From Escherichia coli (GTDB lineage: Bacteria; Pseudomonadota; Gammaproteobacteria; Enterobacterales; Enterobacteriaceae), in assembly GCF_030013595.1 (NCBI RefSeq), contig NZ_CP122768.1: a stretch of 64,000 bases of DNA; one strand, 5' to 3'. Below are positions 4,416 through 16,711 of the stretch, piece by piece; position 1 is the first letter of the stretch, and every line of letters starts with the position of its first letter. The translations under genes were made by a program, and so were the position numbers. The notes under the pieces are model-generated. The model was not told the DNA's origin. It saw nothing but the letters and a program-made list of their open reading frames with translations, and ran no database searches.

Positions 4416-4641
4416 ATCAGACTCCTGAGTAGTTTTTTAATTACAAACACCAACAATCTTAGTCAATAATTAATCTAATACCATCAAATAGTTAATCATG
4501 ATTTTTGTTTTGTGATTCTGATTAAGAAAAAGAAAATACCAGACGATAAGACAAAATATCAAGCGTTGTGAAGAAATGTTATGTGCTCTTTTGCGTCTAT
4601 AGTCATGATGTCAAATGAACGCGTTTCGACAGGAAATCATC

Positions 4642-5862
4642 ATGAATAAATATCAGGCAGTGATTATTGGTTTTGGCAAGGCTGGAAAAACATTAGCCGT
4701 CACGCTGGCAAAAGCAGGTTGGCGTGTGGCTCTCATCGAACAATCAAATGCAATGTATGGCGGGACCTGTATTAATATCGGCTGTATCCCAACCAAAACA
4801 TTGGTTCATGACGCACAGCAGCACACAGATTTTGTCCGTGCCATACAGCGTAAAAATGAAGTGGTTAATTTTTTACGTAATAAGAATTTTCATAATCTTG
4901 CGGATATGCCCAATATCGACGTGATCGACGGCCAGGCGGAGTTTATCAATAATCATAGCCTGCGTGTTCATCGGCCTGAGGGAAATCTGGAGATTCATGG
5001 CGAGAAAATTTTTATTAATACCGGTGCACAAACCGTGGTTCCGCCAATTCCTGGAATTACCACCACGCCTGGTGTATATGACAGCACCGGATTACTTAAT
5101 CTAAAAGAATTGCCTGGGCATTTAGGTATTTTGGGCGGCGGATATATTGGCGTTGAGTTCGCCTCTATGTTCGCTAATTTTGGCAGCAAGGTAACCATTT
5201 TAGAAGCAGCTTCGCTGTTTTTGCCTCGGGAAGATCGGGATATTGCTGATAATATCGCGACGATTTTACGCGATCAGGGCGTCGATATTATCCTCAATGC
5301 CCATGTGGAGCGAATCAGTCACCATGAAAATCAAGTGCAAGTGCATAGCGAGCACGCCCAACTGGCGGTGGATGCACTGTTAATAGCTTCCGGTCGTCAA
5401 CCAGCTACCGCTTCGTTACATCCAGAAAATGCCGGTATCGCAGTAAACGAGCGCGGGGCAATTGTCGTTGACAAGCGATTACATACCACCGCAGACAATA
5501 TTTGGGCGATGGGAGATGTTACCGGCGGGCTGCAATTTACTTACATATCACTAGATGATTACCGCATTGTACGTGATGAGTTACTGGGTGAAGGCAAACG
5601 TAGTACTGATGATCGGAAAAATGTGCCTTATTCCGTATTTATGACACCGCCCCTGTCCAGGGTTGGTATGACAGAAGAACAAGCCAGAGAGAGTGGTGCT
5701 GATATTCAGGTGGTGACATTGCCTGTAGCTGCAATTCCGCGCGCCAGAGTGATGAACGATACCCGTGGGGTATTAAAAGCGATTGTTGATAATAAAACCC
5801 AACGTATATTAGGGGCATCACTGCTGTGTGTTGACACGAGAGTATTCAAAACACGCCAATAA
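4642..5862 (+). pseudogene. rclA: rclA (ykgC) 5' portion, truncated by island insertion; 398 native codons plus 8 foreign codons (TRVFKTRQ*)
   Basis: MNKYQAVIIGFGKAGK (FAD-binding GxGxxG) and the GGTCINIGCIPTK redox-disulfide motif. The native sequence ends at ..GASLLCVD (5834). The remaining 42 codons are found at 16583-16711. Confidence 0.9.
5835..5841. repeat. Left junction direct repeat (attL core candidate) CACGAGA
   Basis: The identical 7-mer recurs at 16583-16589, exactly where the rclA reading frame resumes. A TATTCAA motif lies adjacent (5843-5849). Confidence 0.6.
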
Positions 5863-5903
5863 CCTCTTGATTCAATTGAAGTCGAAAATTTTAAGTCAAA
5901 AAT

Positions 5904-5929
5904 CGTATAGCTTAACGTGTAGCTAAAAA
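5904..5929 (+). repeat. Island-internal arm repeat, left copy (CGTATAGCTTAACGTGTAGCTAAAAA)
   Basis: Near-identical (1 mismatch) direct repeat of 16432-16457. Contains a palindromic TAGCTA hexamer (5920-5925). Confidence 0.7.
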
Positions 5930-5987
5930 TGTTTGCTGCAAAAGTATACAATTTTAACCGTTATGACTCCCTGTTATCCGTTATCAA

Positions 5988-6156
5988 GCTGGTGGATGAT
6001 CATGGATAACCCGTTATGGGAATCCCCATATCGGCATCAGGCCCATGCCATAACAAAAACCCCATATTCGTGGGTTTTCTGTGTTGTGGCTATTCTGCCG
6101 TTGCCGTGCTGGTGGATATTTCCGGTATGTGGCTCACCATATCGGCATCACGCCCA
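5988..6156 (+). repeat. Imperfect ~120-bp tandem duplication upstream of the cos-like site
   Basis: GCTGGTGGAT occurs at 5988-5997 and 6108-6117. CCATATCGGCATCA(G/C)GCCCA occurs at 6026-6045 and 6137-6156 (19/20 identical). Confidence 0.65.
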
Positions 6157-6201
6157 CCAGCGCGACGCATTTTTTTAATTTCGCGGGTGTAAAAATTTGA
6201 C

Positions 6202-6216
6202 GGGGCGGGCGGTCCT
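6202..6216 (+). other. Candidate lambdoid cosN-like site (GGGGCGGGCGGTCCT)
   Basis: TTGACG|GGGGCGGGCGGTCCT resembles the lambda cohesive-end region TTACG|GGGCGGCGACCT (recalled). It is flanked by the repeat A(T)TTTCCG(G)TATGTGGCT at 6118-6134 and 6262-6278, and by a GGGAT-UUCG-ATCCC hairpin at 6234-6247. Confidence 0.45.
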
Positions 6217-6479
6217 ATAAGCAATGGGGGGTAGGGATTTCGATCCCCCCTCCTGAATGCAATTTTCCGTATGTGGCTGTGCGGCAATCATACTCGTCAC
6301 ATGTTTTTGACAATAAAAGGCCCGACCGTGAGACTCACAAACAAAAAAGTTACGGAGAAACAGGGGATCGGGCTCGGTTGCCGCTAAATCTATTCAATTA
6401 AAAGAAGATGTCAATAGGGAAAACGAAAAAAAACAATGCTGATATTGTCATAATTTGAACAAAACCACTATATGTAGTT

Positions 6480-6710
6480 TTAGTTCATGAGGTTAGTCGC
6501 TACCAGATGCGTCAATAGTTTTTTGCTATTAATAATCCCTCTTTTTCCATCGGGAGCTTTGCACTTGTCACTACCTGGTAACTCCTGGTGGCGTTCCTGT
6601 TGCAGCACAACGGAAACAGGCGCTGAACACCTGTTAATTTTGCTTGCAGGTTGTTTGATTTCGGCAATGCTGCGGATCATCTCCAGCATATCGGCTTCGG
6701 TGATGGTCAT
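6480..6710 (-). CDS. Hypothetical 76-aa protein (last gene of the satellite late block)
   Basis: ATG preceded by AAGGTG 7 nt upstream on the minus strand. No family recognised. Confidence 0.5.
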   Translation of the reverse strand: MTITEADMLEMIRSIAEIKQPASKINRCSAPVSVVLQQERHQELPGSDKCKAPDGKRGIINSKKLLTHLVATNLMN

Positions 6711-6717
6711 GATTTAC

Positions 6718-6994
6718 ACCTTAGGAAATCTTAGGGGCTGGTTGACACTTTCCGGCTTAAGACCTTAACAAATCTTAACATCGCAGGTTGACACACTTGA
6801 CACTTTTTCGCGAAAAACCTTATCAAACCTTAGCATTTCTAAGCATGGCAACTTGACACTTTTCGCGATTTTTTCGGCTTTTTGACGTGGTAAATCTGGC
6901 GCAAAGCCAGTAACGGCGGGGTTTACAGCGAGGTTGACACTTTTTCGCGTTCAGAGTGTAAAGTGTCAACCTGGCAAGCTGCTCAACTTGACAC
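6718..6994. repeat. Iteron array: TTGACAC repeats interleaved with paired ACCTTA/ATCTTA half-sites
   Basis: TTGACAC at 6742, 6788, 6797, 6853, 6934 and 6988. Variant TTGACGT at 6882. Inverted copy at 6963-6969. Three A(C/T)CTTA pairs with 10-bp spacing at 6718/6728, 6762/6772 and 6817/6827. Confidence 0.85.
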
Positions 6995-7003
6995 TTTTTG
7001 AGG

Positions 7004-7531
7004 TCATTGATGGCCTGATTTTTCCCACTCAGCCAGGGCGTTTAGTCCGGCTTCACTCCAGTTATCCAGCTCATCGGGACAATCACCTGCAACATAGCAG
7101 AGCTCACAACGCAGCATACGAATTGCCAGCCTGGCATTTTCCCGAAAATCATACTGCTCAAAGTAATATTGCCCAGCATAATCCTCAAGGCAGATAGCAC
7201 CATCATCAAGAAATTGCACTTCACAGCATAGTTCCCCGGCTGCATCCTGTACACGCTGCTGTATGTCATTGTCCGTTACTGGTGCAGGGATTTTACCGTC
7301 TCTGGCCTTAACTGCTTTCCAGAACTCGCCCCACGTCATTTCCAGCGTTCTCTCTGGCCACATTTCAGAAACGGTATCTTTTCCCTGTGCTGGTGGGCTG
7401 TTCCGCTGCTCTGTCGCTTCCACATCGATTTTTTTACCGGACATGACCACTTCGCCTTTCTCGATCCAGTCGTAAACTGTCTGGCGGCTTACGCCTTTGT
7501 GTTTGGCATATTCTGCCTTGCTCATAAACAT
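7004..7531 (-). CDS. Nu1/TerS-like N-terminal HTH protein (candidate small terminase or packaging-redirection factor)
   Basis: The N-terminus MSKAEYAKHKGVSRQTVYDWIEKGEVVMSGKKI parallels the lambda Nu1 winged-HTH (MEVNKKQLADIFGASIRTIQNWQEQGMPV, recalled). GAGGGGA RBS. The gene abuts the TTGACAC array. Confidence 0.5.
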   Translation of the reverse strand: MFMSKAEYAKHKGVSRQTVYDWIEKGEVVMSGKKIDVEATEQRNSPPAQGKDTVSEMWPERTLEMTWGEFWKAVKARDGKIPAPVTDNDIQQRVQDAAGELCCEVQFLDDGAICLEDYAGQYYFEQYDFRENARLAIRMLRCELCYVAGDCPDELDNWSEAGLNALAEWEKSGHQ

Positions 7532-7701
7532 GACACTTCCCCTCAGACTGTATTAATGCGCCGGAAAGCGCGTGTATTTAAATCATCCCAGGAACCGTTG
7601 AGCACCAATTAGTTGCGCGAAGTAATCGGCACCAGCGTTCCGAACAATTTCCAACTTAACGTTCTGATCATTGTTTCCTGCTGCAGGGACAATCCCACGA
7701 T

Positions 7702-8355
7702 TCATAGCCAGCGCCCGGATATTTCTTCCAGTTTTTCCAGAGCTGGCTTGCAGGCCGCATCAATAACTTCACGGACCATTCCGGCGAGCTGTTCTTCTTC
7801 TGTCGGCGTTGTTACTTCCACACCTGATGGTTTCCCGCCCTTATCCCATACGCCCAACGGTACGAGCGCAACGTGATCGATAAGAAATGGCGTACCCTCA
7901 ATGAAAAAATTGTCCTCGCCCATTACATCAGGAACTTCTGCCCCACCGGACGCACCACAAAACACAACCGACGGGCTGGTGGATACCTCCCCCCGTGCTT
8001 TCTGGATGTAATCGATGATTTCCTGCCCGTAAATCCGGCATACGCCCCACACCTCGTCACCGCGAATATACGGCAACATGACGGTGCCAATAATGCGCGA
8101 CCGTTCGCCCACGTCTTCAAGGGTTTTGCTTTCGGGATGGTCGATAATGACGGGTACTCCGGCGCAACGTTCCAGGAACTGCGGATTGAGATAAGTTTGC
8201 GGTGAACGCCAGACAAATTCTTTTTCTTCGGCGCGATAGGCCATTCCGGTTCCTGTGATACGCAGGTTAATCAGCCACATGTTGGAAAACTGATAAGGCG
8301 ACGGTAGCTGACCGTCCCGAATCTGCTTTGCCGCCTCAATTTCTGTTAAAAGCAT
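7702..8355 (-). CDS. Putative prohead protease/scaffold-like protein (GPO / DUF2213-like)
   Basis: 217 aa. Segment order VIIDHPE .. IGTVMLPYIRGDEVWGVCRI .. VSTSPSV .. LIDHVALVPLGVWD parallels P2 gpO (RINLEH .. KWALFAKI .. VYTSMEI .. YLVGLAVTDDPA, recalled). The similarity is weak. Confidence 0.35.
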   Translation of the reverse strand: MLLTEIEAAKQIRDGQLPSPYQFSNMWLINLRITGTGMAYRAEEKEFVWRSPQTYLNPQFLERCAGVPVIIDHPESKTLEDVGERSRIIGTVMLPYIRGDEVWGVCRIYGQEIIDYIQKARGEVSTSPSVVFCGASGGAEVPDVMGEDNFFIEGTPFLIDHVALVPLGVWDKGGKPSGVEVTTPTEEEQLAGMVREVIDAACKPALEKLEEISGRWL

Positions 8356-8419
8356 AATGTCCCCCGGTTATAAGCAATAAGCCCCACCAAATCCGGCAGG
8401 GCTGAAATCAGCACGTTTT

Positions 8420-9004
8420 TCATGCCCCCGCGAGGCTTGCAACGTTAATTTTAACCAGGCGACGGGGAGGGATTTTGAAAGCACTAAGCCAGTTATTCGG
8501 ATCCCCCTGATATTCAGTAATCCGCCGTCCGGCTTCATCCATTCTTACGGTTTTACGCAAATAGCCCGGCGTATTTTCCACAGCCCACTGAACACTGTCT
8601 TTTGCAGCCTGGTAAATCTGATCTTCCAGCACCGCCAGCGTTGCAGAATCTGAAACGGAACGAATATCCACATCACTGAATTTTTTAGCCAGCTTCTGTG
8701 CACCAATTAATGCACGCTTGCGGTAATCCATCGACTTTTCACCAGCAAACGGGGCTGGAGCGCGACGGCCCATATTGCTGTATGCGGAATCCGCTTTAGC
8801 CTGGGCTTCTGCCAGTGAGGATTCATCTTCGACTGACGCGACGATGTTTTTATTCGCGTCATCCTCGTCCGCTTTTGTGAAATCCTGTGCGGGGATCGCA
8901 TTCAGAATTTCGATAATCTCCTGCGGAGTGCTGCCCTGCGACTCTGACAGAGCGTTAACCACCTCCATCAGTTTTAATCGCAAATCTTCTTTGCTTGCTG
9001 GCAT
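8420..9004 (-). CDS. Hypothetical 194-aa protein with acidic/helical N-half (possible scaffold or capsid-size factor)
   Basis: ATG at 9002-9004 with an AGGTGG RBS (the ORF-track GTG start lies 9 nt upstream). Located between the protease-like gene and a small RBS-bearing ORF. No family recognised. Confidence 0.5.
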   Translation of the reverse strand: MPASKEDLRLKLMEVVNALSESQGSTPQEIIEILNAIPAQDFTKADEDDANKNIVASVEDESSLAEAQAKADSAYSNMGRRAPAPFAGEKSMDYRKRALIGAQKLAKKFSDVDIRSVSDSATLAVLEDQIYQAAKDSVQWAVENTPGYLRKTVRMDEAGRRITEYQGDPNNWLSAFKIPPRRLVKINVASLAGA

Positions 9005-9043
9005 TTTTACCACCTCTCTTTTTTCACCAAAAAATCACGACCA

Positions 9044-9223
9044 TCAGGCCGGACGTTCTACGGGATAAAGCGCCCGCTGCATTAAACGCCGGGCGACCTC
9101 ATGAATGCTCGGAGCAATCCCCAGCGGAGAATTGCGGCGTTCCTCGTCCTGGATGCGCTGTAATGCTTCAATCTGATCACGAGCGAGTAAAACGGGTTTC
9201 ACGCTGGCTTTTCTCATAGTCAT
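9044..9223 (-). CDS. Hypothetical 59-aa protein
   Basis: MTMRKASVKPVLLARDQIEALQRIQ... The start at 9221-9223 is preceded by AGGAG 5 nt upstream. First ORF after the bidirectional terminator region. Confidence 0.45.
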   Translation of the reverse strand: MTMRKASVKPVLLARDQIEALQRIQDEERRNSPLGIAPSIHEVARRLMQRALYPVERPA

Positions 9224-9352
9224 ATCTCCTGAACAAAACAATGATTATGATTGCACAAACTGAAATAACGATCTACATCATTGCAATTTATGAAACAATA
9301 ACGCATGATGATCGCGTTCTTCCCATTGACTTCAATCACCTGAAAAACAAAG

Positions 9353-9381
9353 CCCGCAACACTTCTGGCTGCGGGTTTTTT
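9353..9381 (+). terminator. Intrinsic terminator on the + strand with no convincing + strand gene upstream
   Basis: CCCGCA (9353-9358) pairs with TGCGGG (9370-9375), followed by TTTTTT. Confidence 0.5.
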
Positions 9382-9389
9382 ACTGGCAC

Positions 9390-9413
9390 AAAAAAGCCGG
9401 GAAAAATCCCGGC
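9390..9413 (-). terminator. Intrinsic terminator after the PerC-like gene
   Basis: GCCGGGA (9396-9402) pairs with TCCCGGC (9407-9413). On the minus strand the hairpin is followed by a T6 run (A-run at 9390-9395 on +). Confidence 0.65.
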
Positions 9414-9418
9414 CTCCG

Positions 9419-9706
9419 TCACTGACTGCAATTTTTCGATCCAGGGTATTTCCTGAATGCCTTACCATTGGGCTGATGTAATCCCATCCCGGCATGTGCC
9501 CGGCTGATGGTTTCGCGCATTTCCCCGAAATTATCCTGCCTTGCTGGTGGGCGTGCTGCCTTGCGGATACATTCCGCGCGACGTTTTGCCGCCTGTTCCC
9601 GTGCCTTGTCATCATTCGCCAGCATGATGACCTCAGCCCACCGCGCCGCCGCTCTCCGGTACAGACCACGCGCTTCCAGTGCTTCCGCTTTGCTGTCGTG
9701 AATCAT
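9419..9706 (-). CDS. PerC/Pch-like small transcriptional activator
   Basis: 95 aa. The N-terminal motif KAEALEARGLYRRAAARWAEV fits the LE.xG.xRRAA.RW signature I recall for the PerC family. ATGA overlap with the upstream ProQ-like gene. Confidence 0.5.
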   Translation of the reverse strand: MIHDSKAEALEARGLYRRAAARWAEVIMLANDDKAREQAAKRRAECIRKAARPPARQDNFGEMRETISRAHAGMGLHQPNGKAFRKYPGSKNCSQ

Positions 9707-10245
9707 GCGCCTGTTTTCTCCTTTGCTGCCCGGCGCTGACGTTTGCGCTTCTCATTCAGCGCCACCAGCCGCGTTTCTGCGTCCTGTTGTTCCTGTGGTG
9801 TCACCTCGCCGCACGGCTGGCCTTTCAGGTCGTAGCGTACCCCACCAGCCATTAAGGCGCGGTAATAGCGCGGACACTGCGCATAAGATGCCAGCGTCGC
9901 ACGCAATGCCCCTGGACCGAATGCCAGCCCCCTGACGGCGAGATCCTGCATCAGGTCGTCGAATATCCCCACCTTAAGCGGCTTCGGTGCTTCCCGGCTG
10001 AATAATTCAGGCCACAACTCAGTGAGGCGGTTAACGCGCCTGCGGTTTTTGCGCTGGCGTTTGGTCATATGCCGCCACGGTGTCGCCCCTGTGGGCTTCT
10101 GCTGCGCTTTCTGGTTACCGGGCATCACTTTATGCGCCGATGTGGTTTTATCCTGCTCCTGCGCCGCCTGCGTCGTTTTCTGCGGCGTGCCGTAAATGCC
10201 TTTCGGTTTTCTGTTAATGGTCAGCTTAGTCATGCTTTGCCCCAT
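9703..10245 (-). CDS. ProQ/FinO-domain RNA-binding protein
   Basis: LTELWPELFSREAPKPLKVGIFDDLMQDL...ALRATLASYAQCPRYYRALMAGGVRYDLKGQPCGEVTPQE aligns residue-for-residue in pattern with the ProQ N-terminal domain (FPHCFS..RPLKIGIFQDL..LRSALRLYTSSWRYL..RVDLDGNPCGEL, recalled). Confidence 0.75.
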   Translation of the reverse strand: MGQSMTKLTINRKPKGIYGTPQKTTQAAQEQDKTTSAHKVMPGNQKAQQKPTGATPWRHMTKRQRKNRRRVNRLTELWPELFSREAPKPLKVGIFDDLMQDLAVRGLAFGPGALRATLASYAQCPRYYRALMAGGVRYDLKGQPCGEVTPQEQQDAETRLVALNEKRKRQRRAAKEKTGA

Positions 10246-10326
10246 CGTTTTTACTGGTTGCTACGTTGCCCAACGGCACTGACACAACATTCTGTTTTCA
10301 TTTTTAACATTCCTGATTTTTTAATT

Positions 10327-10708
10327 CCTCACCTGCTGCACAGTGAAAATTTATGAAGTTAATAACAATATGATTTTAAATGTATTTTTAAGTACTCACT
10401 TTTTAATCCTTATATATACGCAAAAGTGAGGTAAATAGTTAAGTTTTAGTTAATATCTTGCATGGTGTGTTTTTTAACCTACCTGTTATTTTTATTACCT
10501 CATTTCTATTAACTCACCATTCCTCACTTTTGTTCCTCACTTTTTATTATTCTTGTTCTGCTCCTCAGTCGTTTTCTTTATTGTTGTAATCTGTTGTTTT
10601 GCAATGTGTTTTTAACTCCTCACTTTTTGACCTATATACAGGTGAGAAAGTGAGGAGTGGCGTTGATTTTTTGTTAAATTACCCGCCATCCTCACTTTTG
10701 CTCCTCAC
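10327..10708. repeat. Replication-origin iterons (CCTCAC(T)TTT) in AT-rich DNA directly 3' of the replicase gene
   Basis: CCTCAC at 10327, 10522, 10535, 10618, 10690 and 10703. Inverted GTGAGG at about 10426 and at 10650. Variants ACTCAC (10394) and CCTCAT (~10498). Long T/A tracts lie between them. Confidence 0.8.
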
Positions 10709-10711
10709 TTT

Positions 10712-12127
10712 TTACAGTGGGCGCACATAATCACCGTCAATAGCGATTACGCCGTCGCTTTCCAGCTTGTACAGCCAGCGCCGGAAGTTTTTCATTTCAT
10801 ACCCCAGCTTTTTCATATCATCGCGGAGAAGGGCGATAGTGCACGCCTCCCCGTGTGCTGTTCGCGTTCTGATGCACTGCCATAGCGCAGCGTGATTTTC
10901 CGTCTTGTTCCCGGCCTCCTCGATGCGTTCCAGTTCAACAGGTGGGCGCGGCTTATCCACAACCACCAGCGACGTGATTAACTCCCCGTCAGTGTCGGTA
11001 AAAAGCTCCACCACGCGTAAATCATATGCAGCCTCTTTCAGTTCCTCCGCGTCCTTCATTTTGGTGCAGGAGATAACCAGGGCTTCACTGTCCGCACCTT
11101 CACGGCGAATACGGTATTCAGCGTCCAGAGATGCACGAAATGCACTGGAACCACGCGCCCCTTTTGTTTCATCCTTGCCGGAATGGTGAACCACCAGTAC
11201 CGTGGCCCCTGTGCGTCGTTTCAGTTCGTCACATCCACGGATAAACGCCCCCATATCCCGCGCGTCATTTTCATCATTACCGCCAAAGCAACGCGCCAGC
11301 GTATCCAGAATAATCATGCGTACCGGTTTACCCGTTTCCCGTTCAACCTGACGGGAAGCGATGACCATTTCATCAACATCAAGCGGGACCGCCGGAAAAA
11401 TCGGGCGGTTTACCAGGTACAGATTTTTCACCCGTTCATCATTAACGATTTCCCATGCTTTGATACGACGAGGAACACCGATCCCGCCCTCACCAACGAC
11501 ATACATAACCGCACCATGTACAACCCTGCGACCTCCCCAGTGGCGACCAGTGGCAACATGACACGCCCAGGAACACGCGAGGAACGATTTATAGGAACCG
11601 CTCGCGCCGTATGTGCTGCACAACGAATTAGCCGGAATCACGCCCTTAACGACATAATCAAGCTGTGTGTCGTATCCTGCAGATCCAATACTCATTGGTA
11701 GCGTGGTTTTTCGCTGGCTGTATTGCTCGTCAGTAAGTATTTCCCCGCGCTCTGCCTGTTCGCGGATCCGTTGCAGGTAGTCGTGCCAGTTCTCCAGCTT
11801 CTGGCTGTGCATTCCCTCAGGGTAATAATTCGCATCCCGTACACCTGCCGCCGCCAGTTTTTGCCCGATGGCATTAATATTTGACGGCTTGATGTGGCCT
11901 GCCTTGTACAGCCGGACACAATAGCGACCATCGTCGATAATTTTCAGGTCTGCCAGTTCGTCAAGCTGGCTGTCTCCCAGCCATACAGGCGGAACATTGT
12001 CGCCAGCAAGTCGCCCGTCCTGTTCCTGCCATTGTTTCGCGTGCGCCCAGGCATCACTACCCGCAAAAATAATGACTTCGGTCATTTTGTCGTGTGGCTG
12101 TTTTTTTAAGTTCGGTGCCAGTTTCAT
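10712..12127 (-). CDS. Satellite replicase: RepA/AAA_25-type (RecA-fold) ATPase with N-terminal primase-like region and C-terminal wHTH
   Basis: 471 aa. Walker A YGASGSYKS, Walker B MIILDTLARCFGG, and VLVVHHSGKDETKGARGSSA (DnaB/RepA-like motif). Iterons follow the stop codon. Confidence 0.75.
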   Translation of the reverse strand: MKLAPNLKKQPHDKMTEVIIFAGSDAWAHAKQWQEQDGRLAGDNVPPVWLGDSQLDELADLKIIDDGRYCVRLYKAGHIKPSNINAIGQKLAAAGVRDANYYPEGMHSQKLENWHDYLQRIREQAERGEILTDEQYSQRKTTLPMSIGSAGYDTQLDYVVKGVIPANSLCSTYGASGSYKSFLACSWACHVATGRHWGGRRVVHGAVMYVVGEGGIGVPRRIKAWEIVNDERVKNLYLVNRPIFPAVPLDVDEMVIASRQVERETGKPVRMIILDTLARCFGGNDENDARDMGAFIRGCDELKRRTGATVLVVHHSGKDETKGARGSSAFRASLDAEYRIRREGADSEALVISCTKMKDAEELKEAAYDLRVVELFTDTDGELITSLVVVDKPRPPVELERIEEAGNKTENHAALWQCIRTRTAHGEACTIALLRDDMKKLGYEMKNFRRWLYKLESDGVIAIDGDYVRPL

Positions 12128-12423
12128 TTTGTGCCCCTGAATGCGTTAATCATGTTTTTCATTTTCTGAATATTTGCCCGTGCCTTTGCGTTGCTGGTGG
12201 GCTGTTTGCGTGGTGTGGCCTGTATCAGTGAAAAATCACGCCGGAACTGATAAACAGGCATCACGCAGTCGTAGCTGTACCCATCACGGCGGTAAGTAAC
12301 GCACCGTCCGGCAATACTTTTAATCGTTACCGTGCCGCCGTAGTTATCCCGGAAAATATCGCCGGGGCGGATTTCAGGCCGAGGGAGACCACTGGCAGTA
12401 AAGCCAGAATTTTTCTTTTTCAT
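12124..12423 (-). CDS. Small conserved protein (DUF4222-like)
   Basis: 99 aa. IRPGDIFRDNYGGTVTIKSIAGRCVTYRRDGYSYDCVMPVYQFRRDF resembles DUF4222 proteins of P4-like prophages (recalled). ATGA overlap with the replicase. Confidence 0.45.
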   Translation of the reverse strand: MKKKNSGFTASGLPRPEIRPGDIFRDNYGGTVTIKSIAGRCVTYRRDGYSYDCVMPVYQFRRDFSLIQATPRKQPTSNAKARANIQKMKNMINAFRGTK

Positions 12424-12427
12424 GGTT

Positions 12428-12628
12428 TTATTTTCCTGTCAGCAGTTCCGGTTTTATTTCCGCACGAATACAGAGTTCAGAAAAAAATTCAGGAGAACCA
12501 ACAATCTCATTACTTTTCAGTCGGCATTGTGATTTCACTTTCCCTTTATCCAGGTAAACCAGTATGCGTCCGGTGAAATCATCTGGCACACTCAGGGTAA
12601 TTGTCATTGTTGCTTGCTGATTATCCAT
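12428..12628 (-). CDS. Hypothetical 66-aa protein, one copy of a ~45-aa DxFTG module
   Basis: VPDDFTGRILVYLDKGKVKSQCRLKSNEIVGSPEFFSELCIRAEI. 8-nt overlap with the upstream gene. Confidence 0.55.
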   Translation of the reverse strand: MDNQQATMTITLSVPDDFTGRILVYLDKGKVKSQCRLKSNEIVGSPEFFSELCIRAEIKPELLTGK

Positions 12629-12986
12629 GATTCACCCCCTGAATAACCTGATAACCGCAACTGGTCAGCAATTCGATAAATTCCGGCAGTGTTCCGAAAC
12701 AGCAATCATCTCGCAGCCGTTCTCGGGATACTTCAACGCCGTTTTCGTAGTGACTCACCATGCGTCCGGTAAAATGCAGATCATCATCGTGATGGCTCGT
12801 TAACGGCTTAATCAGTCGCGCACGTTCTGCCAGCTCCAGCAATGCTTCAACGCTTCCGGCAATTGCACCATCCGGCAGGTGATAATTACTTGCCACGCGT
12901 CCATTCTCCACGTTAACCAGTAGCTGCCCGGTGAATTTCTCATCAAACTGAATGCTGTTAAGGTCAGAAATTGACAGGTTAATCAT
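12621..12986 (-). CDS. Hypothetical 121-aa protein, two copies of the same DxFTG module
   Basis: FDEKFTGQLLVNVENGRVASNYHLPDGAIAGSVEALLELAERARL and DDDLHFTGRMVSHYENGVEVSRERLRDDCCFGTLPEFIELLTSCGY. 8-nt overlaps on both sides. Confidence 0.55.
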   Translation of the reverse strand: MINLSISDLNSIQFDEKFTGQLLVNVENGRVASNYHLPDGAIAGSVEALLELAERARLIKPLTSHHDDDLHFTGRMVSHYENGVEVSRERLRDDCCFGTLPEFIELLTSCGYQVIQGVNHG

Positions 12987-13344
12987 GGCGTACCTCCTGG
13001 CGAATACGGGCAGCGAATACCATCACGCAGCCATCAGGAGATTGCTGGCGTGCTTCCTGTTCGCTGGTGGCCACGATGTGAATCACGCGCGGTTGTGCGG
13101 TGCTCAGGGCGATAAAACGCCAGATAAAATTGTTTTCGCATTTCTGAATAAACAGCGTGTTTTCTTCGCGCCCTTTCCATGTTGCCGAGATATAGCCCAT
13201 GCCATTGAGCATCTCGCAGGCATCAACCAGCGTATCAGCGGCTACGTGTACAGTGTTTTTACCGTCAGCTATGCAATCACGGTGCACCGCCAGGAAGGTG
13301 TATATAAATTTAGGGTGAGTTTGGGTATGCTGTGTTCCAGCCAT
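12979..13344 (-). CDS. Icd-like (host cell division inhibitor-like) protein
   Basis: 121 aa from the ATG at 13342-13344 (GAGGT RBS): MAGTQHTQTHPKFIYTFLAVHRD ... NNFIWRFIALSTAQPRVIHIVATSEQEARQQSP..VFAARIRQE. This is the FIW.F.A / SE.EAR signature of Icd-like proteins (recalled). It is the only credible part of the 478-aa ORF. Confidence 0.55.
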   Translation of the reverse strand: MAGTQHTQTHPKFIYTFLAVHRDCIADGKNTVHVAADTLVDACEMLNGMGYISATWKGREENTLFIQKCENNFIWRFIALSTAQPRVIHIVATSEQEARQQSPDGCVMVFAARIRQEVRHD

Positions 13345-13446
13345 AATCGTTACCTCATTTAACGGTTTGGTTAGAAGCCCCGTTACTGCTCCAACAGTGC
13401 GGGGCTTCGTCGTTTCAATTGCTGAATTGCATGTATCAGCCCTTGT

Positions 13447-13499
13447 GGTATTCAGATTACATTTTGGTGAATACCATTTCAAGTCTTTTTTGGTATTCA
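13447..13499. promoter_or_regulatory. Operator-like repeats in the divergent region between the Icd-like operon and the RHH gene
   Basis: GGTATTCA (13447-13454), inverted TGAATACC (13468-13475), and GGTATTCA again (13492-13499). A 9-bp-stem hairpin GAAGCCCCG..CGGGGCTTC lies at about 13373-13407. Confidence 0.45.
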
Positions 13500-13543
13500 C
13501 TTTTGTATTACACTGCATCCCGTTATTAATCGGAGGTGCAAAC

Positions 13544-13849
13544 ATGTCCACGAGTTCTGTTAACAATAAGTCACAGCAACTGAATGCCAGATTTCCACAT
13601 GAAGTAGTGAGTGGCATTGAGGCATCCCTACAGCCAGGGGAAACTAAAGCGAATTTTATAGTTACGGCTGTACGCGGTGAGATCGCCCGCCGCCAGGCAG
13701 AAGGAAGCGGAGAAAACCCCCTGGTTTCTTCGCTCGATGCGCTGGCGCAGGTGGAAAAAATCGGAGTCAAAGCTGCCGAGGAGATCGGGCAGCTCGTCAC
13801 CGTCGCACGTGAAGAACTCCAGCGCCGCAAGGCCAAAGAATCAGAATAA
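13544..13849 (+). CDS. YlcI/YnfO-family (DUF3950, ribbon-helix-helix-like) protein, candidate island regulator
   Basis: 101 aa from the ATG at 13544 (GGAGG RBS 7 nt upstream). KSQQLNARFPHEVVSGIEASL..KANFIVTAVRGEI resembles K-12 YlcI (NIRFPNQMIEQINIAL..GNFSAWVIEAC, recalled). It is one of very few + strand genes in the island. Confidence 0.6.
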   Translation: MSTSSVNNKSQQLNARFPHEVVSGIEASLQPGETKANFIVTAVRGEIARRQAEGSGENPLVSSLDALAQVEKIGVKAAEEIGQLVTVAREELQRRKAKESE

Positions 13850-13906
13850 TAACTATCATCGCCGTGGTGTGAGGAACTCCGGCGCATTGCTTTACAGGTA
13901 CACAGA

Positions 13907-14107
13907 ATGACCAACAAAGAATCAACCAAAACACCATCACCAACCCGGAAGAGACGTCGCAAAAATATGACGCACGAGCATGAATCAGACAGATTCGCGC
14001 CGTGTGCGTTTGTCCTTGAGACGTTCCTTAAAGAGTACAGGCGCACAAAATTAGGGCCACATACCTGGAAAACATCGCGACATAGCGATATTAAAGAGCA
14101 GGAATAG
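13907..14107 (+). CDS. Possible basic 66-aa protein
   Basis: ORF only. Weak RBS, Lys/Arg-rich N-terminus, lies upstream of the + strand terminator. Confidence 0.25.
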   Translation: MTNKESTKTPSPTRKRRRKNMTHEHESDRFAPCAFVLETFLKEYRRTKLGPHTWKTSRHSDIKEQE

Positions 14108-14216
14108 CCCACCAGCAAGTCAGCATATTCACCATAATGACCCTCGGTTAAACCTAGAGTCATTGGTGCAAACCTGACACATTGCCCACCAGCCAGCAAA
14201 TCGCTATGATATTTGG

Positions 14217-14268
14217 GCTTATGTTTAGTGTTTTCCCATTGGCGACCGCCCCCGGTCGCCTTTGTTTT
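14217..14268 (+). ncRNA. Candidate ~50-nt small RNA (promoter plus strong terminator, no ORF)
   Basis: TTGCCC (14182-14187), a 17-nt spacer, then TATGAT (14205-14210). The terminator has GGCGACCG (14241-14248) pairing with CGGTCGCC (14253-14260), a CCCC loop, and TTTGTTTT. Confidence 0.3.
14241..14268 (+). terminator. Strong intrinsic terminator ending + strand transcription before alpA
   Basis: 8-bp GC-rich stem, 4-nt loop, U-tract. Confidence 0.75.
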
Positions 14269-14364
14269 GCCCGTTATCCGGCAATTGTGGCGCTTCGCCA
14301 CACGGTTGATATAATTCCCCTGCACTGATCCATTTTTTTCGCAGCAGGTTAATTGTTCGCAAGG

Positions 14365-14389
14365 GCGCTCCGGCAACGGGGCGCTTTTT
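14365..14389 (+). terminator. Second + strand intrinsic terminator
   Basis: GCGCTCC (14365-14371) pairs with GGGGCGC (14378-14384; one G-U pair), followed by TTTTT. Confidence 0.5.
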
Positions 14390-14419
14390 GTTATGTTCAT
14401 CGCGTTACGCCTCACACCA

Positions 14420-14626
14420 TTACGCAGCCGTTCCGCGCGCTTCTTCCTCGCGCTCTTTCAGCCAGGCCAGCACTTCATCTTCATACCAGCCAACACGACG
14501 CAGACCGATTTTGAAGCCTTTCGGGAATTTTCCGGCGTTGATCATGTCCTGTAGCGAACTGTCTGCCTTGATGCGCAGAATATTTTTTACTTCCTGACGG
14601 GTAAGTATTTTTCTGATTGTTTCCAC
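14420..14626 (-). CDS. alpA: AlpA-family transcriptional regulator / excisionase-like HTH protein
   Basis: 68 aa. ILTRQEVKNILRIKADSSLQDMINAGKFPKGFKIGLRRVGWYEDEVLAWL is the typical AlpA/CP4-57 regulatory motif. Confidence 0.85.
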   Translation of the reverse strand: METIRKILTRQEVKNILRIKADSSLQDMINAGKFPKGFKIGLRRVGWYEDEVLAWLKEREEEARGTAA

Positions 14627-14697
14627 TATGTTTTACCTCGTTAATCCGGCGTATTCCGGTGATAAATACGGTAAAACAGGGCAGGGCGGGAAAAACA

Positions 14698-14731
14698 GTA
14701 CCCACCGTTTTAAAACGGTACCCACTGTTTT
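14698..14731. promoter_or_regulatory. Direct repeats upstream of alpA (GTACCCAC(C/T)GTTTT x2 around a CCGTTTTAAAACGG palindrome)
   Basis: Copies at 14698-14711 and 14718-14731. They lie between the upstream terminator and the alpA start. Confidence 0.45.
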
Positions 14732-14760
14732 TATCTCATTGATTACGCTTTTCTTTCTGC

Positions 14761-14791
14761 AAAAAAATAGCGACCGCAAAGGGCCGCTATT
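14761..14791 (-). terminator. Intrinsic terminator separating the int-orf unit from alpA
   Basis: The minus strand reads AATAGCGGCCCTTTGCGGTCGCTATTTTTTT, a hairpin followed by a T7 run. Confidence 0.6.
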
Positions 14792-14795
14792 GTGA

Positions 14796-15026
14796 TTACC
14801 GTTTCCACTTCTTAGGTCGCCCACCGCATTTAAGGCTGGTGGGCCTCAGCACCTTGTCGATGCTTTCAGCCAGATTTTTCGATGCACCACGCGAGCGCAA
14901 AAAACTGACTACCTCGTGTTTTGTGGGGGCTGTTGATTTGTCTTCCGGATCGTATGTTGACCAGAATTCACGATTTGCCATTAACGCCAGTTGCAGCCCT
15001 TCGCCGTAGGCGGTGGTATTTTGCAT
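14796..15026 (-). CDS. Hypothetical 76-aa protein downstream of int
   Basis: ORF with a basic C-terminus (GGRPKKWKR). No family recognised. Confidence 0.45.
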   Translation of the reverse strand: MQNTTAYGEGLQLALMANREFWSTYDPEDKSTAPTKHEVVSFLRSRGASKNLAESIDKVLRPTSLKCGGRPKKWKR

Positions 15027-15124
15027 AATAGAATTTTCATATACTCCGGCCTTGTCGTTAAATTTGTGGCAATTATACGATGGTTTGGCATGGTTTGCAT
15101 CGCTTTTACTGGCTTTTTGTACAG

Positions 15125-16366
15125 CTACACGGCACGGATACCCCTTTTACCGCTGGCTATGGTCACTCCGGTAGCTGCAGCCTCCACAAATTCACCCCAC
15201 CAGCGCATAAGCACCACGCGCTTTTCCAGGTAGTTACTTCGGTTATATGCCCGCCTTACCTCGTTCGTGTCCACGTGTGCGAGTGCGGCCTCGATTACGT
15301 CCGGTTCGAATCCTTCCTCGTTCGCTGCTGTGCTGAATATGGCGCGTAATCCGTGAGACACCAGCACACCAGCGTAACCCATCCGGCGTAATGCAGCGTT
15401 AGCGGTCTGGCTGCTCATTGGCAGCATCGGATTTTTAAGGCTGGGAAAAACGTGTTCCCTGTGTGCGCTGATTGGCTTCATGGTTTCCAGTACAGCCATA
15501 GCCTGACCGCAAAGGGGGATCACATGGTCACGGCGCATCTTCATGCGTCCGGCTGGAATCGTCCAGGTTTCGGCATCGAGATCTATTTCTTCCCAGCGTG
15601 CGGCGGCTGCTTCGGCTGGGCGTGCTACGGTCAGCAGTTGCCACTCAATCAGCAATCTGGTTTGCCGTTCTATGCTGGCGACCGATAAATCGTGCATTAG
15701 CTGCGGTAGCTGTTCCGGTCGGATGGTTGGCATGTGCTTTTTGGTGGGTGAGGGGAATGCCTTGCGGACGTTCGCGGCGGTGTTGATGTCAATCAGCCCA
15801 CTGTTGGCGGCAAAATCCATCACTTCATTGATGCGCTGCAAAACGCGTTTCAGAGTTTCCAGGTTGCCGCGTGCTTTAATGGGGGTGAGTATCTCAACAA
15901 AGCGGCGAGCGGTGAGGGTATCTATTGGCGTGTTTCCGATGTACGGGAATACGTATTTTTCCAGGGATCGCCAGATATCCTTAATCGTGTTGTAAGCCAG
16001 ATTCTGGCCTTTTTTCATCTCGTACCAGTCCGAGGCAACTTTTTCGAACGTGTTGCCCTTTTTCCGGCTCTCTGCTTCACGTTTCCGGCGTTCATGGTCC
16101 TGTGGGTCAGTTCCCTTTGCTATTAGTGACCTGTATTCATTCCGTCGCTCTCTGGCATCAGACAGGGAAACATCATTCAGCGATCCAAGGCTGATAATAG
16201 TCCGTTTTTTATCTGCCGGGCGGTAGTACGTAAAACGCCATATTTTTGATCCGGAGGGCTTCACCAGAAGAAATAATCCTCCGCCATCCTGCAGGGTGTA
16301 TTCCTTTTCCCCTGGTCGTGCGTTTTTGATCTCCGTAATGGTTAGTGGGGTGGTTTTTCGTGCCAT
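15125..16366 (-). CDS. int: P4-type tyrosine integrase (DUF4102 arm-binding N-domain)
   Basis: 413 aa. N-terminus TEIKNARPGEKEYTLQDGGGLFLLVKPSGSKIWRFTY. Catalytic region ...LTVARPAEAAAARWEEIDL...HGLRAIFSTAANE...ALAHV..NEVRRAYNRSNYLEKR (R..HxxR..Y). Confidence 0.92.
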   Translation of the reverse strand: MARKTTPLTITEIKNARPGEKEYTLQDGGGLFLLVKPSGSKIWRFTYYRPADKKRTIISLGSLNDVSLSDARERRNEYRSLIAKGTDPQDHERRKREAESRKKGNTFEKVASDWYEMKKGQNLAYNTIKDIWRSLEKYVFPYIGNTPIDTLTARRFVEILTPIKARGNLETLKRVLQRINEVMDFAANSGLIDINTAANVRKAFPSPTKKHMPTIRPEQLPQLMHDLSVASIERQTRLLIEWQLLTVARPAEAAAARWEEIDLDAETWTIPAGRMKMRRDHVIPLCGQAMAVLETMKPISAHREHVFPSLKNPMLPMSSQTANAALRRMGYAGVLVSHGLRAIFSTAANEEGFEPDVIEAALAHVDTNEVRRAYNRSNYLEKRVVLMRWWGEFVEAAATGVTIASGKRGIRAV

Positions 16367-16383
16367 GTTTTTTTACCCATCGG

Positions 16384-16457
16384 TAGCTATATGCCTGGTC
16401 GTAGCTATACGGCTTTAGCTACACGCTGGACCGTATAGCTAAACGTGTAGCTAAAAA
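16384..16457. repeat. Integrase-proximal arm-site cluster: five palindromic TAGCTA hexamers plus the right copy of the 26-bp arm repeat
   Basis: TAGCTA at 16384, 16402, 16416, 16436 and 16448. CGTATAGCTAAACGTGTAGCTAAAAA at 16432-16457 matches 5904-5929. Confidence 0.7.
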
Positions 16458-16504
16458 ATCCGGTTATAACCCTATCTTACCGATTCAATCCGGCGACTGA
16501 AAAC

Positions 16505-16540
16505 AACAAAAAAGCCCGTTAATCAGTAAATTAACGGGCT
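16505..16540 (-). terminator. Strong hairpin/terminator just inside the right island end
   Basis: AGCCCGTTAAT (16513-16523) pairs perfectly with ATTAACGGGCT (16530-16540). On the minus strand it is followed by TTTTTTGTTGTTTT. Confidence 0.65.
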
Positions 16541-16582
16541 TTCAATAGGTTACCGATGCTGTCCGATATTCAATTTGGTCGG

Positions 16583-16589
16583 CACGAGA
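16583..16589. repeat. Right junction direct repeat (attR core candidate) CACGAGA
   Basis: Identical to 5835-5841. A TATTCAA motif lies at 16567-16573. Confidence 0.6.
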
Positions 16590-16711
16590 TGATCAATATA
16601 GTGAAAATGGTGATGGATGCCGGGCTGCCTTATAGCATATTACGCGATCAGATATTTACTCATCCGTCGATGAGCGAATCACTCAATGATCTATTTTCAT
16701 TAGTCAAATAA
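16583..16711 (+). pseudogene. rclA: rclA 3' fragment (last 42 codons plus stop)
   Basis: HEMINIVKMVMDAGLPYSILRDQIFTHPSMSESLNDLFSLVK* is the C-terminal interface-domain segment, with the HPxxxE dyad, of the oxidoreductase begun at 4642. Confidence 0.9.

Follow-up and report, generated by a model that had tools for sequence, protein, structure and literature searches.

The window analysed here, a 64-kb stretch of Escherichia coli chromosome covering the ykgEFG-rclR-rclA neighbourhood, contains a satellite element with the gene content of a phage-inducible chromosomal island (PICI). Two adjacent minus-strand genes of this satellite, one for a scaffold-like protein of 194 amino acids (aa; positions 8420–9004) and one for a free prohead-protease domain of 217 aa (7702–8355), are, by homology, the separated halves of what is a single head protease-scaffold gene in the likely helper phage. 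The helper family is predicted with good confidence to be that of the Rac-SA53-like prophages. Both satellite genes are under purifying selection. The anatomy of the pair and its helper link are solid and make it a strong candidate for a module by which the satellite would commandeer or resize helper capsids, a function that we infer. Our proposal, which we hold to be evenly poised between right and wrong, is that a short competing scaffold and a free protease would together make satellite-specific, probably smaller, capsids from helper coat protein.

The phage fusion gene and its two satellite counterparts

Searches with either satellite protein hit the same 14 phages, in each of which one gene contains both counterparts, the protease at its front and the part resembling the 194-aa protein at its end. 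In Escherichia phage Rac-SA53, whose 430-aa product is annotated 'TolA protein / nudix', residues 3–220 align with the 217-aa protein at 54% identity, and residues 295–422 align with residues 60–187 of the 194-aa protein at 65% identity (tblastn). The homologue in Klebsiella phage Chronis is 537 aa long and has an additional N-terminal NUDIX domain. The profile PHROG 6216 models the whole fused architecture and covers both satellite proteins, the 217-aa protein at profile positions 115–315 and the 194-aa protein at positions 405–544. The fusions measure 430–540 aa and consist of a DUF2213 protease, a long Lys/Ala/Glu-rich coiled-coil arm and a C-terminal domain. The phage head genes run in the order TerS, TerL, portal (DUF1073), MuF, the fusion, a 205–286-aa protein (phrog_6268) and a 342-aa major capsid protein. 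The 205–286-aa protein, whose Chronis version has an insertion matching virion-structural and tail-fibre PHROGs, is a probable decoration protein. The fusion is read as a protease-scaffold gene because it is sited between portal/MuF and decoration/major capsid; the interval from portal/MuF to capsid is the standard place for a prohead protease-scaffold, and no other scaffold candidate was found in that part of the phage head module. The gene product is best read as a protease, followed by a coiled-coil arm and then a capsid-proximal C-terminal domain.

A comparable protein has been visualized in the Pseudomonas phage Pa193, whose 478-aa gp24 is encoded beside decoration and capsid genes (PMC11456595). 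C-terminal to its DUF2213 domain, gp24 has a helix-turn-helix (residues 286–326) that cryo-electron microscopy (cryo-EM) located under the five-fold vertices of the capsid (PMC11456595). The authors regarded gp24 as a putative scaffold and interpreted the helix-turn-helix as a scaffold remnant (PMC11456595). The Pfam DUF2213 family has since been renamed after this protein.

The helper-type gene may also yield a nested, scaffold-only product of ∼240 aa, a possibility raised by a Shine-Dalgarno sequence and an in-frame ATG right behind the protease. This ATG is conserved (Met190 in Rac-SA53, L004:9562; Met191 in L007; Met190 in L013; Met299 in L005) and is preceded by AGGTGA in three Rac-type genes and by GAGG in Chronis. 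Such an arrangement would resemble that of lambda, where Nu3 is nested inside C. Some gene callers start proteins within the fusion gene, at a Met ∼30 codons further downstream (P0148, P0149). A NUDIX hydrolase domain is joined N-terminally to the DUF2213 protease-scaffold in a number of phages and metagenome contigs (L005:3599-5212; P0036-P0053); this fusion would take a nucleotide-pyrophosphatase into the procapsid, perhaps to be packaged or ejected. In the Rac-SA53-type prophage of STEC719, the portal gene (L015:20921-22357) is named 'anti-CBASS protein Acb1 family protein' in RefSeq. The homologous Rac-SA53 gene is a DUF1073/Phage_portal_3 portal by Pfam and PHROG, and the Acb1 name looks like a carry-over.

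The 217-aa protein carries VPVIIDHPES, RGDEVWGVCRIYG, EVSTSPSVVF and FLIDHVALVPLGVWDKGG, so that all four motifs (4/4) quoted in a preliminary description of this DNA, which had seen in the protein the segment order of a GPO/DUF2213-type prohead protease-scaffold, are present in it. The comparison itself survives in part. PF09979 (DUF2213, now Pa193_gp24) is matched above its gathering threshold (28.2 bits against a cut-off of 22, E 2.2e-6), with protein residues 39–168 covering profile positions 33–156 of 167, and homologues are named 'DUF2213 domain-containing protein' in RefSeq. PF05929 (Phage_GPO, the gpO of P2) was not matched: the Pfam scan at E≤0.1 gave this protein DUF2213 alone. The resemblance to gpO is architectural only and belongs to the phage fusion, not to the 217-aa protein. 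As for 'protease-scaffold', the first half of the term holds and the second does not, the protein having neither the coiled-coil linker nor the C-terminal domain found after the protease in the phage gene; it ends instead in a C-terminal helix (residues 186–216).

The protease assignment draws on both structure prediction and conservation. The AlphaFold model of the 217-aa protein matches T4 gp21 and the herpesvirus assemblins, and the predicted structure has the assemblin β-barrel fold of the superfamily that includes herpesvirus protease, T4 gp21 and HK97 gp4. Three residues, H73, S127 (within a TSP motif) and D160, never vary among 38 homologues, at least 90% of which also have H161. Assemblin-type proteases have the catalytic order His...Ser...His, which the residue order of the 217-aa protein fits; this catalytic match is judged by conservation and order alone. 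As modelled, the protein is a prohead protease domain with the assemblin fold, belonging to the DUF2213 family, and its catalysis is predicted. By comparison with the island of strain ETEC6335 (L001:4955-5233), positions 7638–7708 of the window miss ∼208 bp between the DUF2213 gene and the neighbouring gene for a 175-aa protein, and because of this loss the protease ends in ...ISGRWL (217 aa) rather than the usual ...ISGRLAQLEKEG (223 aa). The same 217-aa allele recurs in strains cq9 and U90 and in IMG/VR locus L018.

The open reading frame (ORF) of the second gene extends over 8420–9013 when read from a GTG (197 aa), and the ATG at 9004 gives the 194 aa that is also the RefSeq length. The preliminary description had called this protein scaffold-like on account of an acidic, helical N-terminal half and a basic C-terminal half, and on each point it was right. 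Residues 1–75 have an isoelectric point (pI) of 4.1 and residues 76–194 a pI of 9.9; the AlphaFold2 model (mean confidence, pLDDT, 74.5) is mostly helical, with one β-hairpin; and the protein is homologous to the C-terminal half of the phage protease-scaffold gene, a part whose own scaffold role is suggested by its position and by Pa193 gp24. The 194-aa protein falls outside every curated family, with no Pfam domain in a scan at E≤0.1, and is homologous to the C-terminal part of the PHROG 6216 proteins. Its residues 60–188 are 55–65% identical to the C-terminal domain of the Rac-SA53-type fusions. The best-conserved part of this shared domain is the extreme C-terminus, where 30/36 (83%) of the final aligned residues are identical to the phage protein, as against 52/89 (58%) before them. 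Fold searches with the 194-aa protein gave no specific scaffold match. Single-sequence searches of the PDB with the 194-, 217- and 175-aa proteins returned nothing, and profile searches of the PDB returned NUDIX structures alone (from fusion rows in the alignment) or noise.

Ahead of the basic C-terminal domain, the 194-aa protein has an N-terminal arm (residues 1–60) that is acidic, helical and satellite-specific. The distance from the N-terminus to the conserved AQAKADS motif is 60–74 aa in satellites; the phage arm to the same motif is 111–118 aa, counted from the conserved internal Met behind the protease. Compared by length, the satellite arm is thus ∼45–50 residues shorter, and it is without the Lys/Ala/Glu-rich repeat of the phages. 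A derivation of the arm from the helper's post-protease helix, by duplication and complementary deletions, was considered; one local alignment reached p=0.025 and others were not significant, and this origin is not claimed.

The names under which these proteins are filed suggest a quite different account, that of a non-morphogenetic enzyme pair in which a 194-aa NUDIX hydrolase acts with a DUF2213 partner in nucleotide or signalling metabolism. NCBI calls most members of the 194-aa family 'NUDIX hydrolase' (the name used in both RefSeq and UniRef) and 'TolA' is applied to some of the 217-aa family; moreover, the 217-aa protein has some homologues, in phages and metagenomes, in which NUDIX is fused to DUF2213. 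Against this, the 194-aa protein is without a NUDIX domain. PF00293 was matched neither in the protein itself (E≤0.1) nor in the precomputed Pfam column of 101 homologues, and no Nudix box was seen on direct reading of its sequence. The fusions have NUDIX ahead of the protease, on the N-terminal side, and the 194-aa protein corresponds to the opposite, C-terminal end. The names 'NUDIX hydrolase' and 'TolA' are wrong here, since neither protein contains the domains that they imply, and were evidently carried over from the long proteins that combine NUDIX, DUF2213, coiled coil and C-terminal domain. An enzyme pair of this kind is extremely improbable. Structure and profile searches do not place the two proteins in non-morphogenetic families, an outcome that by the preliminary description would have refuted its reading; both match one phage protease-scaffold gene.

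Distribution of the split pair and its association with helper prophages

In all satellites examined, the two halves are separate genes in a constant order, with the scaffold-like gene first and the protease gene second, the reverse of the phage fusion. The pair was found in 33 of 5426 complete E. coli genomes, in 47 places and up to four per genome; most of these genomes come from pigs, cattle and goats. Outside E. coli, satellites of Pantoea agglomerans, P. stewartii, Citrobacter sp. NCU1 and Klebsiella aerogenes carry it too, and the order of a 57-aa gene, a scaffold-like gene of ∼190–199 aa and a protease gene of ∼221–224 aa is kept across genera. The integrases (for tRNA-Pro, tRNA-Thr and tRNA-Gly) and the replication genes around the pair vary, which argues that it moves between satellites as a module. 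In IMG/VR, all loci matching the full 194 residues (19/19) have the split pair in a PICI backbone, on contigs mostly of 10–18 kb, and all loci matching residues 60–188 alone (61/61) have the fused gene with Rac-SA53-type head genes. Contigs of this phage class are mostly 30–63 kb long, and 58/61 of its loci hold the full set from TerS to major capsid.

Sequence divergence dates the separation of the two halves. Between satellites of different genera, identity is 56–61% for the protease and 50–60% for the C-terminal domain; between satellite and phage genes it is 52–56% and 55–65%, respectively. Because the satellites are about equally far from each other and from the phage gene, the split is old and the genes are not recent captures. 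Among E. coli alleles (synonymous divergence, dS, 0.12–0.16), the ratio of nonsynonymous to synonymous divergence (dN/dS) is 0.09–0.14 for the protease gene and 0.10–0.23 for the scaffold-like gene. The explanation that the island is a degraded prophage was rejected on these dN/dS values and the cross-genus conservation.

The same data bear on whether the pair consists of late genes taken from the helper that do little or nothing themselves, either as recombination leftovers or as back-up copies, an origin proposed for capsid genes in many Gram-negative PICIs and in helper-embedded PICIs. Gram-negative PICIs often carry helper late genes, and a knockout was tolerated (PMC10111431). Some relatives of this satellite also have rac52 and SLT tail genes like those of the helper, with identities of at most 83%, and two relatives sit, one of them probably, within helper prophages. 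However, satellite loci from at least five genera all share one split, reordered form, the cross-genus identities speak for an old split, and dN/dS is 0.1–0.2. A back-up role does not fit, because the embedded satellites interrupt TerL and the major capsid gene rather than the protease-scaffold gene. All told, we regard idle capture as quite unlikely.

Turning to the helper, Rac-SA53-type head genes are present in 83 of the 5426 E. coli genomes. Of these 83, 60 were listed, and they include at least 13 of the 33 genomes that have the satellite pair, where 0.5 would be expected; the sources of the co-occurrence genomes span otter, crow and baboon. Both classes are also found together in five IMG/VR isolate genomes and in P. 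stewartii ATCC 8199. Two further loci place the satellite within helper DNA itself. In P. agglomerans (L007:9001-16628), the DNA after the satellite begins with the final 111 codons of TerL (residue 332 on), 80% identical to the Rac-SA53 type, and goes on with portal, MuF, a full 438-aa fusion gene and the capsid gene. This satellite is probably inside TerL, since it is directly abutted by the 3′ third of that gene; the 5′ part lies beyond the fetched DNA. In IMG/VR locus L036 (9696-20567), a satellite interrupts the helper capsid gene at codon 17, and the remainder of that gene is followed by tail genes. Helper-embedded PICI configurations have been described for lambda-type helpers (PMC10111431), and these two loci extend them to a non-lambda helper family.

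The island, its insertion site and neighbouring packaging candidates

The satellite lies inside rclA and spans about 5838–16593, with minus-strand genes almost throughout, as established from its ORFs, gene families and junctions. The junctions confirm the size of ∼10.7 kb given in the preliminary description. From the integrase end, the ORF list and family scans identify on the minus strand an integrase (15125–16366), an AlpA-like helix-turn-helix (HTH) protein (14420–14626), a DUF4222 protein (12124–12423), a RepA/AAA_25 helicase (10712–12127), a ProQ/FinO protein (9703–10245) and a PerC protein (9419–9706). There follow, also on the minus strand, the gene for the 57-aa protein (9044–9217), the scaffold-like and protease genes, and the gene for the 175-aa protein (7004–7531), beyond which ∼1.1 kb of non-coding DNA closes the island. 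With int, an AlpA-like HTH, RepA/AAA_25, PerC, ProQ, a late module and no full virion set, the island has the makeup of a Gram-negative PICI, and its gene content and order are those of EcCICFT073-like elements.

That no major capsid, portal or TerL gene accompanies the pair, as the preliminary description had noted, is borne out. Pfam and PHROG scans of ten island ORFs (7004–12986) found no homologue of portal, TerL or major capsid, and a tblastn search of the whole window with Rac-SA53 head proteins found no capsid, portal or TerL homologue. For the small ORFs at 13.0–15.1 kb, the judgement relies on how RefSeq names the corresponding genes of a near-identical island. A promoter and terminator scan of 6300–10400 gave counts not above those of shuffled sequence.

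The insertion has cut off RclA, the ykgC product, at residue 415. The rclA frame (4615–5862) passes into foreign DNA, and its final 51 codons recur at 16556–16711. At its right end (16556–16593 junction) the island has a tRNA-Pro 3′ end in reverse complement (TGGTCGGCACGAGA), and the two island/rclA junctions (5838–5862; 16556–16593) have only CACGAGA in common with rclA. In pig strains of enterotoxigenic E. coli (ETEC), near-identical islands are found at tRNA-Pro beside yejM. The retained tRNA-Pro 3′ end and the short shared sequence mark the window copy as a secondary-site integration that disrupts rclA.

Three further features accompany the pair. The 57-aa protein is always encoded directly upstream of the pair: RefSeq WP_001224090.1 occupies this position in L001, L002, L006 and L016, and homologues of 63–73% identity precede the pair in Pantoea, Citrobacter and IMG/VR satellites. 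It has no Pfam match, and to the eye its sequence shows a possible ribbon-helix-helix-like pattern. The 175-aa protein has an N-terminal HTH of the small-terminase/excisionase kind, with residues 1–42 matching PHROG 57 'terminase small subunit' (5.4e-7) and a match to Pfam HTH_17 at 4.6e-4, below the family cut-off. In other satellites, its slot is taken by an Sf6-type TerS (113 aa) and a 275–288-aa protein; it has no similarity to the Rac-SA53 TerS. An identity as Rpp was rejected, there being no DUF1441 Pfam match and no match to the PDB structure of RppC at E≤10. We regard the 175-aa protein as a candidate for the satellite's packaging-specificity factor.

Directly downstream of the 175-aa gene, reading of the sequence revealed an array of TTGACAC(TTTTTCGCG)-type repeats (6741–7003, strand not assigned), with about six direct copies and one inverted, among them two exact 16-mers and one copy with 3 mismatches. 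Two to four motif matches lie beside the homologue of the 175-aa gene in L001, L002, L006 and the Pantoea locus L010, and the Rac-SA53 head region has no match to the motif. The array is a candidate packaging recognition site of the satellite.

Late zones vary among related elements. In L017 (1-1470), L019, L022, L029 and L035, a 2.8-kb insert between the DUF2213 and 175-aa genes encodes two proteins, a rac52-like one of 205 aa (79–83% identity to that of the helper) and one with a lytic-transglycosylase domain, similar to the tail gene that follows rac52 in the helper; these relatives have therefore also taken helper tail genes. The island in the window is without this insert. E. coli SA53-3, the host of Rac-SA53, has at its tRNA-Pro site a related satellite (L003) with the same integrase/AlpA/RepA backbone, in which a DUF1441 (Rpp-like) protein and a small terminase stand where the protease/scaffold pair would be. 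Satellites with a common backbone evidently swap late modules.

Proposed capsid redirection, its alternatives and known systems

The proposed route to satellite-specific capsids would begin once helper late genes are on. The 194-aa protein would then bind the helper major capsid protein via the common C-terminal domain, in competition with the helper protease-scaffold. Its shorter, different arm would give satellite-specific, probably smaller, procapsids. Displacement of the helper fusion would leave these procapsids without a protease, which the satellite would supply in trans; in the proposal, the satellite brings a protease because that of the helper is covalently tied to the displaced scaffold. 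The trans-acting protease would remove the scaffold and allow the shell to mature, and the 175-aa HTH protein and the TTGACAC array would direct satellite DNA into the shells. Competition between scaffolds would also reduce helper yield.

Remodelling of this kind, which the preliminary description had suggested from the pair and the missing head genes, is favoured by the helper origin of the pair, its conserved split, the selection acting on it, its co-occurrence with and embedding in helpers, the shorter arm, and the precedent of the satellite proteins CpmB and Rcm. Several observations weigh on the other side. The hypergeometric p for satellite/helper co-occurrence (4e-16) is inflated by clonal relatedness, and no helper-type prophage lies within the window. 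The N-terminal arm has no significant similarity to the helper linker (hhalign E 0.43), so that 'shortened arm' denotes a comparison of lengths and not an alignment. The free protease is without the C-terminal domain that would be expected to bring a protease into the procapsid. Finally, among E. coli PICIs the best studied is EcCICFT073; it uses full-size capsids for its packaging, and deletion of its captured capsid-type genes was without phenotype, showing that captured late genes of Gram-negative PICIs can be dispensable.

A fuller version of the remodelling proposal, which we put forward only tentatively, is that the fusion has been taken apart so that the shortened scaffold would set a smaller T number and the detached protease, recruited non-covalently, would mature the small shells. 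Incorporation of the protease would, for example, involve its C-terminal helix and the N-terminal arm of the scaffold.

The same homology and conservation are compatible with interference only, in which the free scaffold domain, the protease or both would poison helper head assembly and no distinct capsid size would arise. The coat-binding site would be blocked, or the helper protease-scaffold cleaved too early, and the fall in helper yield would in effect be a defence. The satellite would be packaged as multimers in normal-size heads like EcCICFT073, and EcCICFT073-type PICIs do interfere without a change in capsid size and are packaged in phage-size capsids. Yet a pure poison has no obvious need for two conserved genes in fixed order with intact catalytic residues, and the satellite still depends on working heads from the same protein pool. 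Interference also leaves the consistently shorter arm across genera unexplained. These points make interference by itself rather unlikely, though a serious contender to capsid remodelling.

[quoted passage not shown] Both are helical and resemble the helper scaffolding protein at the coat-protein contact (PMC12409344). The 194-aa protein likewise has its C-terminal domain in common with the helper-type scaffold part. Here, however, the hosts are Gram-negative rather than S. aureus, there is no sequence relationship to CpmB or Rcm, and the likeness to the helper is plain homology over ∼130 residues (55–65% identity) rather than a short motif. A further difference is that the mimic is paired with a satellite prohead protease, and size redirection is in this case only proposed. 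If the proposal holds, the logic of the pair would be that of SaPI operon I. To our knowledge, no satellite-encoded prohead protease occurs in systems of the CpmB and Rcm type.

On the phage side, P2 gpO and lambda C/Nu3 are protease-scaffold fusions or nested genes. The phage fusion resembles them and Pa193 gp24 in that one gene provides an assemblin-fold protease and a capsid-interior scaffold part, and the internal Shine-Dalgarno and ATG of the helper-type genes recall Nu3 within C. Those are phage genes working beside their own capsid gene, whereas in the satellite the parts are separate genes, in reverse order, in an element without a capsid gene.

EcCICFT073 and the helper-embedded PICIs have in common with this satellite the int, AlpA, replication and PerC genes and a late zone ending in a packaging-specificity protein and site, candidates for both of which are seen here. 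Their late zone can also hold helper-captured genes, and some relatives sit inside helper late genes. EcCICFT073 differs in having capsid-like and decoration-like genes, Rpp (DUF1441), lambda or phage 80 as helper, and full-size capsids; the present satellite has instead the split protease-scaffold, a 175-aa HTH protein without a DUF1441 or RppC match, and a Rac-SA53-type association.

Sid of P4, TcaP of the phage-inducible chromosomal island-like elements (PLEs) and Ccm of SaPIbov5 are satellite proteins that change helper capsid geometry, as is proposed here. Sid and TcaP scaffold the capsid from outside, and Ccm is a homologue of capsid protein; we know of none among them that derives from a helper internal scaffold or comes with a protease. 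A satellite-encoded prohead protease is a feature of the capsid-forming PICIs (cf-PICIs). These possess every head component themselves (capsid, portal, connectors and terminase) and rely on the helper for tails alone; the island in the window differs in being without capsid, portal and TerL genes.

Full-text literature searches found no description of this module, and the genes behind size redirection in Gram-negative PICIs had not been identified as of a 2018 paper on these elements (PMC6092414). The known routes of capsid-size redirection are few (CpmA/B, Rcm, Ccm, Sid and TcaP), and the pair offers a concrete, genetically tractable candidate in E. coli. Relative to CpmB and Rcm, what is new is the plain helper-gene origin, the setting in Gram-negative PICIs, and the coupling to a protease without a capsid gene. 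More immediately, the pair is useful as a marker for this satellite class and for predicting helpers, and the widespread names 'NUDIX hydrolase' and 'TolA' need correction for these proteins.

If the fuller version of the proposal is true, the pair would be the first module found in E. coli PICIs to redirect capsid size, and the satellite the first to bring its own maturation protease without a capsid gene. The helper would then be an LT-II enterotoxin-converting prophage; Rac-SA53-like prophages carry LT-II and EplBA toxins in livestock strains of ETEC and Shiga toxin-producing E. coli (STEC). The split pair would also embody a new design principle, in which a helper fusion is split rather than a scaffold invented, and in which the protease is retained; scaffold removal would therefore be a constraint that satellites must solve.

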